In this document: piece after piece, positions 29,439 to 60,493 of the stretch
Position numbering within the stretch: the stretch's first letter is position 1
Layout: every line of letters begins with the position of its first letter
Made by a program: the position numbers and the translations under genes
NCBI GenBank assembly: GCA_030700025.1
Contig: JAUYKI010000010.1
Span: 16,648-80,647, forward strand
Source of the DNA: a bacterium
Lineage (GTDB): Bacteria; Patescibacteriota; Minisyncoccia; UBA6257; 02-FULL-45-10c
DNA length: 64,000 bases
Reading direction: 5' to 3'
Notes under the pieces: model-generated
The model's input: only the letters and a program-made list of their open reading frames with translations
What the model was told of the DNA's origin: nothing
The model's database searches: none

Positions 29439-29606
29439 GCCGCCGCTCAATCCCCAGCCCTCGCGCTTACTGGAAAGCTGTCTCACGGTTAAATCCTCCC
29501 TTGCCCGTCCGTAGTCTCGCGAAGCGAGACGTAGGCGGGTTTGAATTTTCAAGCTGGCTATTCCCAGCACTGGTGGCAGGATACCATAAAAATAAATCTT
29601 TGTCAA

Positions 29607-29678
29607 ACCCCGTTAGAAGCCGCCCTCGCTAAAGCGAGTGGCTACGGCCACCTAGGGGCGGTCTGCTTCTAACGGGGT
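29607..29678 (-). repeat. family A inverted-repeat element E3 (short, GC-rich interior)
   Basis: CCCCGTTAGAAGC...GCTTCTAACGGGG 13-bp terminal inverted repeats; nested hairpins inside. Confidence 0.55.
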
Positions 29679-29725
29679 CAAATTTACCCAATTCCCAAGG
29701 TGGAGTATCATGAGTATATAAACCC

Positions 29726-30745
29726 ATGCATAAAATCACATCTTTCATAATCGCTGAAACCGTCAAGGCCAAGCGAGGCAAGGAAGCGCCGGTCGCGGCG
29801 CCGGTTAAAAGCGCTCCGCATTATTTTGAGAAAACCGTTCCTTCCCAGTTTATTTTAAAACAAGAAACGGCGACTTTAGACAGCGCCTCCATTGAACTGG
29901 TAGCTAAAACTTATCCGCCGGATATTATTTTGGTGGAAGGCACCATTGAGGTGCCGGATGTTTTTGCCGAGGGAACTTTGGAATTGAAAGATAAACTGCT
30001 GGCGGCTTGCTATGAGTTCGCCAAAAAAAACGGCGCCAAAGAAGAACCGGCGGAAGAATATACCGTTTACCAAGTTTATGGCTACCCGGGCGACCCCGAA
30101 GCGATTCTGAAAGAAAGTGGAAAGAAAATGGCGGGTCTGCTGAAATCGGAAAAATTAGAGCTGGACGAAAATGAAGTAAAATATACGCTTTCTTTCCAGT
30201 TAAAATACGCTAAAGACGATTTGGCGATTGTGGATTGGGACGGCGCGTTTTTATTTGACCGGGAAGGGGAATTCGGAGAAACTATTGAATTATTGGAATT
30301 AGCGAACTTCCAGCTGCTCCGCTATCGGATTTTAGACCATGATTTAGACGACCGTTTGCAAAAAATTTCCAAGCTTACCCAGCAGGAAGGCAGCAGCCGG
30401 TGGTTCCGGACCAAAGAAGTGGCGCAAGCGTTCAAAGAAGTGATTAAAGTACGCTCCCAGTCTATTTCAGAATTTGAAGCGCTGGACCGGGACATTAAGC
30501 TAATCGGCGACTGGTATTCGGCCCGGCTTTATGAATTAATGTTTAAAAAATTCCGGATGGACGCCTGGTCTCTGACCATTAAAGAAAAACTGGAGTCTTT
30601 GGAAGACTCTTACGATATCGTGTCGGAGAACCTGGGAATGTCCCGGATGCAACTTTTGGAATTCATCCAAATCGGCGCTTTCTTTATTTTGCAAATCGGC
30701 TGGTTTGCCCTTATTATTCTTGAATTTTTCTATTTTACGCGATAA
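29726..30745 (+). CDS. hypothetical protein with C-terminal TM helix (339 aa)
   Basis: long ORF, consistent codon usage; no recognisable motif. Confidence 0.5.
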   Translation: MHKITSFIIAETVKAKRGKEAPVAAPVKSAPHYFEKTVPSQFILKQETATLDSASIELVAKTYPPDIILVEGTIEVPDVFAEGTLELKDKLLAACYEFAKKNGAKEEPAEEYTVYQVYGYPGDPEAILKESGKKMAGLLKSEKLELDENEVKYTLSFQLKYAKDDLAIVDWDGAFLFDREGEFGETIELLELANFQLLRYRILDHDLDDRLQKISKLTQQEGSSRWFRTKEVAQAFKEVIKVRSQSISEFEALDRDIKLIGDWYSARLYELMFKKFRMDAWSLTIKEKLESLEDSYDIVSENLGMSRMQLLEFIQIGAFFILQIGWFALIILEFFYFTR

Positions 30746-30823
30746 TCTGATTACGACTAAACCAATCGAAAATTAATTTTCGATTGGTCGCCCGATCAAA
30801 TTTATAATATAAATTTGATTTAG

Positions 30824-30857
30824 GGGCCTATGGTATAGTGGCAGAATGCGGCATTCG
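30824..30857 (+). pseudogene. diverged copy of the tRNA-Ala 5' half
   Basis: gggcctatggtatagtggcagaatgcggcattcg aligns with gggctcatagtaaagtggtattacgcagcattcg of the intact tRNA-Ala 300 bp downstream. Confidence 0.45.
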
Positions 30858-30858
30858 T

Positions 30859-31158
30859 CCCGATGTATAAATTTTGAAATGTTCTATACATATATTTTAA
30901 AATCATATAAAGAAGGTTCCTATTACATAGGTAGTTGTGAGAATGTAGACAAAAGATTACGATTACACAATCAAGGTTTTGTGACATCAACTAAACGATA
31001 TAAGCCATGGCAATTAGTATATAGTGAGAAGTTTGATAATTTAATTGGCGCGCGACGTCGAGAAGCTCAGATAAAATCGTTGAAGAAAAGAAGCGCGGTA
31101 GAAAAACTGATAAGAACATTTCAAAATTTATACATCGTGGATCCGCGATAACTTTGGT
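30859..31158 (+). mobile_element. AT-rich GIY-YIG cassette bounded by 24-bp perfect inverted repeats
   Basis: CGATGTATAAATTTTGAAATGTTC at 30861-30884 and its exact reverse complement at 31114-31137; sits between a tRNA-Ala 5'-half copy and the intact tRNA-Ala. Confidence 0.5.
30879..31151 (+). CDS. small GIY-YIG nuclease (YhbQ/UPF0213-like)
   Basis: YTYILKSYKEGSYYIGSCENVDKRLRLHNQG matches GIY-x10-YIG...R...H...N; about 30% GC; alternative start at 30846. Confidence 0.7.
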   Translation: MFYTYILKSYKEGSYYIGSCENVDKRLRLHNQGFVTSTKRYKPWQLVYSEKFDNLIGARRREAQIKSLKKRSAVEKLIRTFQNLYIVDPR

Positions 31159-31229
31159 GGGCTCATAGTAAAGTGGTATTACGCAGCATTCGCATTGCTG
31201 AGGCTCGGGTTCGATTCCCGATGGGTCCA
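31159..31229 (+). tRNA. tRNA-Ala(CGC), no encoded CCA
   Basis: acceptor gggctca/tgggtcc with G3:U70 identity pair; D arm gtaa-agtggta-ttac; anticodon arm cagca-ttCGCat-tgctg; T arm tcggg-ttcgatt-cccga. Confidence 0.8.
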
Positions 31230-31524
31230 CATGAGTCCACCAAAGTTATCGGGACATTGCCAAGGCGCGAGTTTCCCGACTTTCATTAAAGCTACCGAAA
31301 GAAGTCGAGGATCCTCGATGGCTTTGCCATCGGGACGATTCCGCCTAGGTCCACCACAAACGAATACGCCACCCGGGTGGCGTATTGAATTTGACAAATA
31401 ATTACTAAGGGTGTATTATATGAAATAATTCCTATCTGTATGGATAGGTCGCTCCGCAAGGGGTCAGGCGGTAAGAATCCTGCCGCAACTTAGGGTTCAC
31501 AGCACATTGAAAAGGAGGTGCCGT

Positions 31525-44934: not shown

Positions 44935-44985
44935 TTCTGGATGGTGTCCCACGCCAAACTCATTCTTATTTGTTTGGCGTGGGGC

Positions 44986-45014
44986 TTGACAACGGCTTCG
45001 TTCTATGGTAGTAT
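44986..45014 (+). promoter_or_regulatory. sigma70-like promoter
   Basis: TTGACA - 17 nt - TAGTAT upstream of the 45101 gene. Confidence 0.4.
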
Positions 45015-45100
45015 TTACCATAGACCTTTGAAGCTGGGGAATCCGAAAGGAAACCCCAAAACCAAGCCCCTGTGGGCAATTCCCAAGGAGGACAACGACC

Positions 45101-45871
45101 ATGGAACGATTGACGCCGGAACAGAAGGATCAGAAGTACGGACCGGTCGCGCAGCTGTGCATCGCGGCGTGCCGGGCGCACGGAGAGATCCACAAGGCCA
45201 ACGGCAAGAACAAGGAGAAGCCGGGAACGGTTTCTCCCGAGACGATTCAGGAGCTGGTGACCGGGGCCCGGGCGGCTGACGAAGCCATTCGGAACGCCAC
45301 GGCCAGCTACACGCAGGACGACATTCGGCTGATGGCTGCCTACCTCGAGCAGGCGGTGGTGCGCGTTGCGCTCACCCCCGGCGAGAGCGGCGGACTGACG
45401 TTCGATGTCGGCGTGGCTCGCGGGGTGGTGAATGCCATCCAGAGCCTGCGCCACATGCCTGGGGTGGCGGAGAACTTCGTTCGCTACCACCTCCAGCGGA
45501 CTGGGACGTTCCTGGATCTGTGCGACGTGACCGGTTCCGTGCCGAAGTACGGCATGAACACCGCGAGCGTTCGCTACAGTCTGGAACGGCTCGCCAGCAA
45601 GATCGCCGAGGCTCGCAAGAGCTACGAGACGGCCAAGACTGAGGGTCGGCTTCTCGAGGCGGGAAACCTGGGTGTCGCGGTCGCGAATCTGAACGGGCTC
45701 AACAGCCGGGCCAGCTCGCTCTTCGAGCGGTGGCTCACTGAGCGGCAGCCGGCCACGGCCAACGCTTCCATCGGGGAGCAGGTCGGACCGGAAGTGCAGT
45801 CGGCGGTGGCGGTGGCGGAGACGACTCCGACGCCCGCTCCGGCACGGCGGCCCGCGCGTTCGCGTCGGTAA
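45101..45871 (+). CDS. hypothetical protein, GC-rich (about 62% GC), basic C-terminal tail
   Basis: AAGGAGG RBS 11 nt upstream; composition far from the window background. Confidence 0.5.
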   Translation: MERLTPEQKDQKYGPVAQLCIAACRAHGEIHKANGKNKEKPGTVSPETIQELVTGARAADEAIRNATASYTQDDIRLMAAYLEQAVVRVALTPGESGGLTFDVGVARGVVNAIQSLRHMPGVAENFVRYHLQRTGTFLDLCDVTGSVPKYGMNTASVRYSLERLASKIAEARKSYETAKTEGRLLEAGNLGVAVANLNGLNSRASSLFERWLTERQPATANASIGEQVGPEVQSAVAVAETTPTPAPARRPARSRR

Positions 45872-45962
45872 TCCTTCGGTCATCTCAGGCCGAGGGCAGT
45901 AACTGAGTTCCGGGAGCTCACACATTCGAAAGAATGTGTGAGCCCCGGGCTCACATTTTTTT

Positions 45963-45998
45963 GTATGCGAATGCCTTAACGAATAGGCACATACGAAT
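45963..45998 (-). repeat. PR-family core copy R3 (reverse orientation)
   Basis: exact reverse complement of the 36-bp core ATTCGTATGTGCCTATTCGTTAAGGCATTCGCATAC. Confidence 0.65.
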
Positions 45999-46200
45999 TT
46001 TTATAGAATTTATTTTTCACTCTTAGAATCTCTTTTTAATAATTGGATTCAGCCTCAAACTAAGAGTGAAAAATAAGTTCTTTAAGAAAAGCAATATCTG
46101 TACCAATATTTTTTACTAAAAATTATTTTGGGGAAATATTGGTGCAGAGATTGCACAAACTTGTGTCCGCAAGGCCACAAAATACAGGAAGGAGATACAG

Positions 46201-59740: not shown

Positions 59741-60493
59741 ATGAAATTACAAATCACAAATTATCCCGATTCTGCGGGAATCGAGGACTCTCGATTGCAA
59801 AGCAATCGGAGCAAATCACAAATCATTTCTCGAGGTGTTTTGTTTTTAATTATTGTTTTGATTTTTGGAAATTGGAGTTTAAGCGAAGCCCAGACCGCTC
59901 CGGAATTTATAATTTCCTGGCGGGCAATGAATTACGTTCCTTCCGGTTATCAGGGAAAAGCCTTGCCTATTAATTCAACGCCGATTGAAATCGGCTTGGA
60001 TATCGTAGAATCCGGGAAAATCGTTAGTTTAACTGCTAATGAAATCCGCTGGTTTTTCAACGGCGATTTATTGCGATCCGGCAACGGGCTAAAAACTATC
60101 CGGCTTAACAGCAAAAGCGCCAGCCAGCAAATCCGAGTCGTAGTCGCGAACTATAAAGGGGTGAATTTGGAAAAAATATTTATTATTCCAGCGCAAACTC
60201 CTAAACTGGTTATTGATACCCGCTTGCCTAATTCCAACGCCGGTTTAGGCAAATACCGTTTAGAGGCTCTGCCATATTTTTTCAACATCTTTTCGCTTCA
60301 AGAATTAAAGTTTGACTGGTCCGCTAATAATCAGCCGGTTAGCGGTGAAACAGGAGATCCGCAAATTTTGGATGTGGATTTCTCTTCTGAAAGCGCGCCG
60401 GCCGAAACTAATATCCGCATTTCTGCCATTGTTTCCAATCGTTTTAATCCGGTAGAATTAAGCAGTGGCGCAGTAGAATTAAATGTCCGATAA
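59741..60493 (+). CDS. hypothetical secreted/membrane-anchored protein
   Basis: N-terminal anchor (VLFLIIVLIFGNW); 1-nt gap to the next gene. Confidence 0.45.
   Translation: MKLQITNYPDSAGIEDSRLQSNRSKSQIISRGVLFLIIVLIFGNWSLSEAQTAPEFIISWRAMNYVPSGYQGKALPINSTPIEIGLDIVESGKIVSLTANEIRWFFNGDLLRSGNGLKTIRLNSKSASQQIRVVVANYKGVNLEKIFIIPAQTPKLVIDTRLPNSNAGLGKYRLEALPYFFNIFSLQELKFDWSANNQPVSGETGDPQILDVDFSSESAPAETNIRISAIVSNRFNPVELSSGAVELNVR

Follow-up and report, generated by a model that had tools for sequence, protein, structure and literature searches.

Small elements in tRNA genes have been described from several sources, and some of them resemble an element that lies in a tRNA-Ala gene of contig JAUYKI010000010.1 (assembly GCA_030700025.1). 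The 64,000 nucleotides (nt) of this contig that were analyzed are referred to as the window, and coordinates are positions on its forward strand. Free-standing GIY-YIG homing endonucleases are known from T4-like phages. These Seg proteins have more than 200 amino acids (aa), contain DNA-binding domains and are encoded between genes, SegB in the tRNA cluster of T4. Archaeal tRNA introns, for which intron 'transposition' is known in the Thermoproteales, are spliced by EndA at a defined bulge-helix-bulge (BHB) motif. REPIN/RAYT, the ends of IS200/IS605, integron attC sites and miniature inverted-repeat transposable elements (MITEs) are moved by HUH or tyrosine recombinases, and to our knowledge none of them depends on a GIY-YIG nuclease, has a single tRNA species as its target or takes a tRNA along as cargo. 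Among the smallest GIY-YIG proteins, SLX1 works with SLX4 on branched DNA; we know of no YhbQ-type gene that is mobile and of no link between YhbQ or SLX1 and tRNA genes or hairpin cassettes. The nearest paper (Nakagawa et al., 2026; PMC13011429) describes group I introns at position 35/36 of tRNA-Asn, tRNA-Asp and tRNA-Tyr in Patescibacteria. These introns are subgroup IA ribozymes that follow U35, are capable of self-splicing in vitro and in most cases have no endonuclease gene. Insertions in tRNA-Ala, GIY-YIG genes and nested tRNAs are not mentioned there.

The element in the window shares with these group I introns the phylum, the unusual anticodon-loop site and the fact that both are overlooked by tRNA finders. 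In contrast to them, it lacks a group I core, has G35 before the junction, carries a whole tRNA and often leaves decayed outer genes. With the Seg genes of T4-like phages it has in common a GIY-YIG gene without an intron of its own, an association with tRNA genes and, if our reading is right, spread into element-free DNA with co-conversion of flanks, but it interrupts the tRNA itself, whereas the Seg genes have no replacement gene, hairpin skeleton or nesting. Full-text literature searches, which left most subscription journals outside their scope, retrieved no description of this element.

Its copies carry two cargoes, each looped out from a long hairpin, namely the gene of a GIY-YIG nuclease of 80-93 aa and a complete tRNA-Ala gene. 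Comparison of the copies shows that the insertion destroys the resident tRNA-Ala and leaves its halves as flanking relics, so that no tRNA-Ala other than the cargo copy is uninterrupted at any filled locus. The intact sequence of the cargo tRNA suggests that it supplies the lost function. It is also re-invaded itself, giving nests two to three deep, and older copies lose the open reading frame (ORF) and the tRNA and shrink to two-hairpin derivatives of 50-100 nt, called minis here. We regard it as probable that this is a site-specific selfish DNA element of Patescibacteria, which enters tRNA-Ala between nt 35 and 36 and has spread by nuclease-driven homing with co-conversion. A selfish element acting at the DNA level is favored because of presence or absence at an exact site, donor-type exons, decay of outer copies, loss of cargo in old ones, patchy occurrence in distant classes of Patescibacteria and a conserved nuclease as sole protein. 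The features of the window are as follows.

30761-30788 (14+14) and 30795-30819 (12+1+12), unstranded: two perfect AT-rich palindromes between the stop codon of the upstream gene and the split tRNA
30824-30857, plus strand: 5' exon of the outer tRNA-Ala(CGC), with acceptor strand GGGCCTA, D arm, 5' anticodon-stem strand and loop to G35 (...CATTCG)
30858-31254, plus strand: element 1, 397 nt, exactly between G35 and C36, two tandem hairpin units
30858-31141, plus strand: unit A, closed by TCC (30858-60) and GGA (31139-41), its loop holding the GIY-YIG ORF, with a 25-bp perfect stem and position 31138 (T) bulged
30879-31151, plus strand: GIY-YIG nuclease gene, 90 aa (Pfam PF01541)
31142-31254, plus strand: unit B, with TCC (31142-44), a bulged G at 31145, a 21-bp stem (31146-31166/31231-31251) round the cargo tRNA and GGA (31252-54)
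31159-31230, plus strand: inner intact tRNA-Ala(CGC) with G3:U70 (ARAGORN; Rfam tRNA, 64.5 bits)
31232-31242, plus strand: second acceptor 3' strand and CCA (TGAGTCC-ACCA), an extension of stem B that pairs with the inner tRNA's acceptor 5' strand
31255-31273, plus strand: middle exon of the outer tRNA, CATTGCCAAGGCGCGAGTT, nt 36-54, with CAT, 3' anticodon-stem strand, variable loop, 5' T-stem strand and TT
31274-31335, unstranded: element 2, 62 nt, without ORF or tRNA, in the outer T loop at nt 55/56, with hairpins 31274-31311 and 31312-31335 of the same skeleton
31336-31356, plus strand: 3' exon of the outer tRNA, CGATTCCGCCTAGGTCCACCA, with CGATT (rest of the T loop), CCGCC, acceptor strand TAGGTCC, A73 and encoded CCA
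31363-31386, unstranded: G+C-rich terminator-like hairpin 3' of the locus
59764-59811, unstranded: ectopic mini, 48 nt, TCC-CGAT..ATCG-a-GGA followed by CTC-t-CGAT..ATCG-GAG

Boundaries of the element were set by comparison of 30 loci and of one pair of a filled and an empty site (L046 and L047; L numbers denote fetched loci and P numbers protein relatives). tRNA genes were called with ARAGORN and Rfam covariance models and the nuclease with Pfam, and its structure was studied with an AlphaFold2 (AF2) model and Foldseek. An independent assembly, Logan contig L001 (SRR13727534), is identical to window positions 29506-31195, and the arrangement is therefore not an assembly artefact of the window contig.

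All sequence features listed in the original prediction are present, at the predicted positions or within 1-2 nt of them, and it is mainly their reading that changes. The prediction saw an AT-rich cassette of about 30% GC, bounded by 24-bp perfect terminal inverted repeats and inserted beside a tRNA-Ala. The G+C content is indeed low (31% versus 44.7% for the window) and the repeat is perfect (30861-30885 / 31113-31137, 25 nt, 100% complementary); its 24-mer occurs at just these two sites of the window, and no match arose in any of 100 shuffles. The arms overlap the gene as predicted, with the start codon in the left arm and the last 13 codons running through the right arm. This repeat is, however, an internal stem and does not mark the termini; the true ends, TCCCGAT...ATCGGGA, are found at the ends of every copy. 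Instead of standing beside the tRNA-Ala, the cassette is one half of a two-hairpin element whose other half carries the intact tRNA-Ala(CGC) with its G3:U70 pair, found downstream as predicted. The order of partial tRNA, cassette and full tRNA was rightly taken as the trace of a tRNA-targeted insertion, but the target is not the intact tRNA, which is carried as cargo and presumably does the work of the gene. It is the gene that owns the supposedly duplicated 5' half: this diverged copy (74% identity to the first 34 nt of the inner tRNA, 29/34 nt identical to the uninterrupted orthologous tRNA of L044) is not a duplicate but the 5' exon of the disrupted resident gene, which is split between nt 35 and 36 and has its 3' part downstream of the intact tRNA. 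The outer acceptor strand GGGCCTA (30824-30830) pairs with TAGGTCC (31346-31352), G3:U70 included, and is completed by ACCA (to 31356). This 3' end of the split tRNA (31346-31356), element 2, the 21-bp stem round the intact tRNA and the mini at 59764-59811 had been overlooked.

The second acceptor 3' strand with ACCA that follows the cargo tRNA is usual and has been seen in the window, L005, L006, L009, L012, L016, L019, L024, L029, L030 and L058. It often gives G3:C instead of G3:U, and with it stem B reaches about 20 bp and competes with the cloverleaf. Either a remnant of an earlier cargo tRNA or a selected feature is conceivable. Extra acceptor 3' strands would also fit debris of integrase-mediated genomic islands aimed at tRNA-Ala, since tRNA genes are classic integration sites downstream of which tRNA 3'-end fragments pile up. 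Like islands and phages of this kind, the element targets a tRNA gene and brings sequence that keeps the tRNA functional. Islands, however, use tyrosine or serine integrases, duplicate the 3' segment only and measure kilobases, whereas the element has just 0.4 kb, carries a nuclease gene as its only ORF and no integrase, brings a complete tRNA and leaves both old halves in place. Moreover, it is the 5' half that is displaced upstream, where integrases leave 3' fragments, and the cargo is a whole tRNA within a hairpin. Such an origin is contradicted by the anatomy and is hardly credible.

Related loci were reached by three routes, that is, through protein relatives and through a 24-nt junction pattern applied to GTDB genomes and to metagenomes. 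Protein relatives led to L002, L003 and L004. The pattern had nine real matches out of ten in GTDB species genomes (Yanofskybacteria, Wildermuthbacteria, four Saccharibacteria, two 'Patescibacteria group' and one 'bacterium') and 21 out of 23 in metagenomes; L014, L023 and L033 were discarded as chance matches of the DNA pattern. P0145 (Portnoybacteria) and P0208, from a metagenome-assembled genome (MAG) labelled Spirochaetia, were picked by protein similarity and also lie in the same structure, and this architecture is present at all five loci that were chosen by protein similarity alone. About 30 distinct loci thus share it, all in tRNA-Ala (CGC or TGC). Every ORF-bearing copy is inserted at nt 35/36 (...TTCG|CAT... 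or ...TTTG|CAA...), and unit B contains at all loci either an uninterrupted tRNA-Ala or a further element nested in that tRNA. Triple nests with complete right-hand sides were found in L015, L021 and L022. Decay is common: among 28 non-redundant loci the ORF is intact in 16, broken by stop codons in two and replaced by a short hairpin in ten, and the right side has been deleted in L008 and L035. The distribution is patchy and includes Saccharibacteria, Yanofsky-, Wildermuth- and Portnoybacteria and others. A search of viral contigs gave no relatives and hence no phage vector.

Some loci have more complicated histories. The element of L024 is preceded by D-loop sequence and followed by anticodon sequence, which points to a deletion between two elements, and a further mini is nested inside unit A; in L026 a full element is directly followed by a mini. 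The copy in the Spirochaetia-labelled MAG GCA_007279775.1 (L058-L060, protein P0208) either lies on a mis-binned Patescibacteria contig or was transferred outside the phylum. Many metagenome contigs end inside or beside a nest (L002, L004, L016, L018, L019, L026, L029 and L037), which suggests that short-read assemblies fail at the repeated tRNA halves and hairpins.

Empty sites were recognized with the help of the upstream gene, which encodes in the window a MJ0711_N-like protein of 339 aa with many orthologs. A plain tRNA-Ala(CGC) follows the ortholog, directly or past an NAD kinase gene, in L039-L043 (80% aa identity), L044/45 (74%) and L047 (74%), whereas the orthologous locus is filled in the window, L012, L029 and L002. 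The most direct comparison is offered by L046 (filled) and L047 (empty). Both are collinear on either side with 78-92% nt identity, and their tRNA differs only by a 377-nt element located exactly after G35. The original prediction, which had proposed a small mobile or homing element and had suggested looking in relatives for extra copies or empty sites, is borne out in this core point by the roughly 30 independent copies, by the empty orthologous sites (L039-45 and L047), by this exact filled/empty pair and by chimeric flanks that look like the product of co-conversion. L038, the closest relative in the flanking gene (96% aa identity), was considered as an empty site and rejected, as its tRNA is enclosed in a unit-B-like stem and followed by a relic 3' half. 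In this locus (2100-2308) the tRNA-Ala sits in a CCCCGAC...GTCGGGG stem and the relic 3' half holds an insertion remnant; the left part of an older element has been deleted. Invasion and deletion thus go further back at this locus.

The chimeric flanks deserve a closer description. In L046 the exon beside the element has, in the 3' anticodon-stem strand, a donor-like TGCCG instead of the TGCGC of the empty allele, and the outer anticodon stem is thereby broken. A donor-like CATTGCCGAG follows the element at several loci in which the 5' strand does not match (L019, L030). Donor-type 3' exons as in L046, L019, L030 and the window are consistent with co-conversion. The middle exon of the window is of the donor type (17/19 nt identical to L039, 13/19 to L044), and its 3' exon is native (19/19 identical to the L044 tRNA). 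Native 5' and 3' exons round a donor-type middle exon account for the mismatched outer T stem of the window, where the strands GCGAG and CCGCC do not pair. Consequently, the outer gene would be defective even if the insertions were to leave its RNA. We judge it likely that the inner tRNA (31159-31230) is the working gene and that only a dead relic is left of the outer one (30824-30857 + 31255-31273 + 31336-31356).

The predicted GIY-YIG (YhbQ-like) nuclease of 90-100 aa was confirmed by a hidden Markov model search. For the 90-aa ORF, the score against Pfam GIY-YIG (PF01541) is 51.6 bits (cut-off 22.6; E = 1.2e-13), and its nearest solved relatives by sequence (phmmer) are the UPF0213 proteins BH0048 and EF2693 (1zg2, 1ywl; E ~1e-5), followed by SLX1. 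Its start codon lies inside the left stem arm, and the TAA of the conserved CGATAA in unit B serves as stop codon. The AF2 model has a mean confidence (pLDDT, predicted local distance difference test) of 90.5. In Foldseek it matched 1zg2 with E = 4e-4 and SLX1 7cq3 with a TM-score of 0.67 and a root-mean-square deviation (rmsd) of 1.4; over 1zg2 and the SLX1 nuclease domains, TM-scores were 0.58-0.67 and rmsd values 1.4-3.0 Å, compared with a TM-score of 0.50 for the I-TevI catalytic domain. The nuclease is a member of the UPF0213/YhbQ-SLX1 branch of the GIY-YIG superfamily. Across loci it consists of the catalytic domain alone (80-93 aa), with no additional domain or DNA-binding module, and a Pfam scan of the element ORF found no transposase domain. 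In 46 homologs Y5, Y16, G18, R26, N31 and E62 are invariant and H30 nearly so; together with a mean column identity of 67%, these catalytic-type residues indicate that the protein is under selection. A profile search gave E <= 1e-10 for 1,688 protein clusters, of which the 120 best have 80-125 aa (mostly 80-95) and, apart from the protein of the window itself, 54-81% identity, and where the taxon was stated among these 120 it was a Patescibacteria lineage in all but one.

UPF0213/YhbQ proteins are widespread products of single-copy genes, and the minimal GIY-YIG domain of about 90 aa in UPF0213/YhbQ and SLX1 (1zg2, 1ywl, 7cq3, 6sei) is closest to the element's protein in both sequence and structure. 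One might therefore suppose a fixed housekeeping YhbQ-like gene beside tRNA-Ala, the hairpins being accidental and the partial tRNA the decayed product of a tandem duplication. Empty orthologous sites, above all the L046/L047 pair, contradict this idea. The insertion point is exact, copies are nested and ORF-less derivatives exist; a 25-bp repeat is not expected by chance, and the same skeleton occurs in distant classes of Patescibacteria. We give this explanation next to no weight.

Comparison of the copies revealed a common skeleton, TCC-CGAT...ATCG-n-GGA | TCC-n-CGAT...ATCG-GGA, in which the bulged bases of the window are t in unit A and g in unit B. Unit A has a stem of 20-28 bp with the GIY-YIG ORF in its loop, the left arm including the start codon and the right arm the C-terminal codons. 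Unit B reads TCC-n-CGATAAyTyTGGT-[tRNA-Ala]-ACCArAGTTATCG-GGA, by which the acceptor stem of the tRNA is lengthened by about 13 bp. The closing triplets are complementary inside each unit in 35 two-unit copies (one table row was judged to have a mis-paired right end). Unit A is closed by TCC/GGA (28), TTC/GAA (4), TGC/GCA, CTC/GAG or CCC/GGG (1 each), unit B by TCC/GGA (30), TGC/GCA (3) or TTC/GAA (1). This complementarity within units argues for two separately closed hairpins rather than one closing helix. A closing helix of 7-11 bp (TCGTCCCGATG / CATCGGGACGA) had been considered as the base of the element and was abandoned, as the variants TGC..GCA|TCC..GGA and CTC..GAG pair only within the unit. 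Stem A is nearly pure Watson-Crick, and its arms covary across loci (GAAATG/CATTTC, GGAATG/CATTCC, GCGATG/CATCGC). G.U and A.C mismatches are very rare in it, and their asymmetry, meant to tell RNA from DNA structure, was uninformative with stems of almost pure Watson-Crick pairing. The hairpin structure is clearly under selection, which is compatible with action in RNA or in DNA. None of 35 insertions has a target-site duplication.

Minis without either cargo still have the two hairpins and lie at other positions of outer tRNAs only (10|11, 18|19, ~29|30, 55|56 and 56|57); their size is 48-100 nt. T-loop minis orthologous to element 2 of the window are present in L005/L034, L013 and L022. The mini at 59764-59811 is the one outside any tRNA. 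It adds 16 codons in frame to the N-terminal region of a secreted-type protein of 250 aa, and the closest homolog found (P0243, 74% identical) lacks these codons and has an N-terminus shorter by 18 residues. Being in frame and absent from the closest homolog, it represents a DNA-level insertion without splicing, and it shows that the element has some ability to land outside tRNA genes. A flanking 12-nt direct repeat (59750/59812) was rejected as a target duplication; it encodes a native KxQIxN repeat that the insert-less homolog also has. No mini outside tRNA-Ala nests was seen in 303 kb of fetched flanks. There is a good chance that both 31274-31335 and 59764-59811 are decayed copies of the element. 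The outer T loops of L048 (~1680-1720) and L032 contain two-hairpin insertions without the TCC-CGAT motif, for example TCACCCTTCGGGTGA and CCACCCGCAGGGTGG, which may belong to a second family of such insertions into this tRNA.

The invariant skeleton and the minis raise the possibility of transposition by hairpin ends. An SLX1-like nuclease would recognize the folded ends (four TCC(n)CGAT copies with conserved extrahelical bases). In single-stranded or cruciform DNA it would cleave where the hairpins begin, and the two-hairpin unit would be inserted into DNA loops exposed in tRNA-Ala and rarely elsewhere, the cargo tRNA still being a rescue copy. Closing triplets that always covary, nearly pure Watson-Crick stems whose arms change together, minis mainly in the D, anticodon and T loops with one in a protein gene devoid of tRNA homology, and the similarity of the nuclease to SLX1/UPF0213 would all be accommodated. 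In this respect the element resembles REPIN/RAYT, IS200/IS605, attC sites and MITEs, with non-autonomous hairpin copies beside an autonomous one, conserved extrahelical bases and covarying arms; like IS200/IS605, it makes no target duplication. On the other hand, the lack of target-site duplications also speaks against transposition, as do the restriction of ORF-bearing copies to one site of one tRNA species, the donor-type exon beside the element, which is a product of break repair from a homologous donor, and the lack of minis beyond the tRNA-Ala nests in the fetched flanks. We know of no GIY-YIG transposase, which counts against it as well. This mode of transposition is possible but unlikely. 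If it did apply, an idea we hold only tentatively, the element would be a new class of bacterial mobile DNA, in which a minimal SLX1-like nuclease as mobility enzyme is combined with a rescue copy in a natural 'cleave-and-rescue' arrangement. Synthetic 'Cleave and Rescue' (ClvR) gene drives are engineered with Cas9 and a recoded, uncuttable rescue copy. Their principle, in which a nuclease against an essential gene is coupled to a rescue copy of it, would be shared by the element, but the rescue tRNA of the element is unprotected and itself re-invaded.

It is less likely that the two hairpins are also removed from RNA and that nested tRNAs are thus still usable. After in-silico removal of both elements from the window, ARAGORN calls a tRNA-Ala(CGC) across the junction, and it recovers a junction-spanning tRNA in 12 of 18 excisions; the outer anticodon stem retains 5/5 pairs in nine of these 18, 4/5 in five and 3/5 in four. 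When introns of up to 700 nt were allowed, ARAGORN did not join the tRNA halves of the window locus. One could envisage a new protein-dependent bacterial tRNA intron in which the hairpins bring the exon ends together, the RNA is excised, and outer and inner tRNA-Ala are all functional, the inner one being intron-encoded. The preference of insertions for tRNA loops, the hairpin bases that abut the exon ends with zero spare nucleotides and the several outer tRNAs that are intact after conceptual excision (ARAGORN 12/18) would agree with such an intron, and Patescibacteria commonly have group I introns at this very position, 35/36 (PMC13011429). However, Rfam finds no ribozyme family even at E <= 10, the 5' junction is preceded by G and not U, the last base of the element is A and not G, BHB geometry is absent, and minis of 62 nt are too small for self-splicing. 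In half of the outer tRNAs an anticodon, T or acceptor stem is mismatched or the 3' half is missing, so that the spliced product would often be useless. Furthermore, the ectopic mini is read through in frame and the stems show no G.U enrichment. An intron of this type is improbable.

Known intron types and other RNAs were excluded on similar grounds. A group I intron or other ribozyme does not fit, with no Rfam match at E <= 10 (Intron_gpI included), G35 ahead of an element that ends in ...GGGA, and minis of 48-100 nt. Archaeal-type BHB introns likewise form related short insertions at several tRNA positions (D, anticodon and T loops), but here the hosts are bacterial, the two junctions share one end of a helix or hairpin base without the pair of 3-nt bulges that flank the 4-bp helix of a BHB motif, and the outer tRNAs are frequently broken. 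Transfer-messenger RNA (tmRNA), in one piece or permuted, was considered for the outer acceptor with G3:U70, the encoded CCA and the terminator. ARAGORN -m found no tmRNA at the locus even at a lowered threshold, the Rfam tmRNA_permuted score was 12 bits versus a gathering score of 47, and there is neither a T arm behind the closing helix nor a plausible tag ORF; this reading was rejected.

Homing would be the most economical mechanism for the anatomy, polymorphism, chimerism and nesting described above. The GIY-YIG nuclease would break an uninterrupted tRNA-Ala gene, and the break would be repaired from an element-bearing copy, with co-conversion of neighboring exon sequence and nearby minis. 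The resident tRNA promoter may then drive both nuclease and cargo tRNA, the latter being freed by RNase P and 3' processing, and the 25-bp stem that buries the start codon may keep expression of the nuclease low. As an intact target, the cargo tRNA could be invaded again, and nests would result.

Several observations weigh against homing in this simple form. A protein that comprises the catalytic domain alone and is, judging from the model, nearer to the structure-specific SLX1 than to I-TevI would be unusual, and indeed unlikely, as a sequence-specific homing enzyme. The conserved, covarying two-hairpin skeleton with its fixed bulges is not explained by simple homing; it looks as if it were there to be recognized, like the ends of IS200/IS605 or integron attC sites. 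Nor are the minis at other tRNA positions and in a protein-coding gene accounted for. Outer tRNAs that are perfectly intact after in-silico excision (L006, L029, L031 and both outer layers of L015) fit splicing, too. The closest pair of nuclease genes is 81% identical, and no very recent transfer was caught.

Upstream of the split tRNA, the two perfect AT palindromes of the original prediction were retrieved. The second one holds a TATAAT (30803-30808) 15 nt ahead of the outer tRNA start, and a promoter scan upstream of the locus gave no convincing sigma-70 site. Both palindromes are probably context, likely a terminator-like hairpin and a promoter region; the syntenic locus L029 has a different hairpin in their place. 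The arms of the second palindrome (AAATTTATA) are similar to the base of stem A, and the palindromes could be a terminator plus promoter or else remnants of older hairpin units. Elsewhere in the window, positions 45001-46000 have a G+C content of 62.6% (window mean 44.7%) with long overlapping ORFs on both strands (44966-45925 minus, 45101-45871 plus), and Rfam gave no match in this stretch.

If the proposed explanation is true, a selfish element invades an essential gene by bringing a complete spare copy of its target, and not by splicing as introns and inteins do. Many Patescibacteria genomes contain small 'GIY-YIG family' genes and odd pieces of tRNA, which would be explained in this way, and their working tRNA-Ala would have come from outside with the element. 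Assemblies may also be disrupted by the nested repeats, several contigs ending inside a nest. The nested relics would record successive invasions and could be used to study homing dynamics in uncultivated bacteria. For the UPF0213/YhbQ branch of GIY-YIG nucleases, the element would provide a biological role and a testable substrate, and its own enzyme may turn out to be a very small nuclease that is specific for a sequence or a structure.

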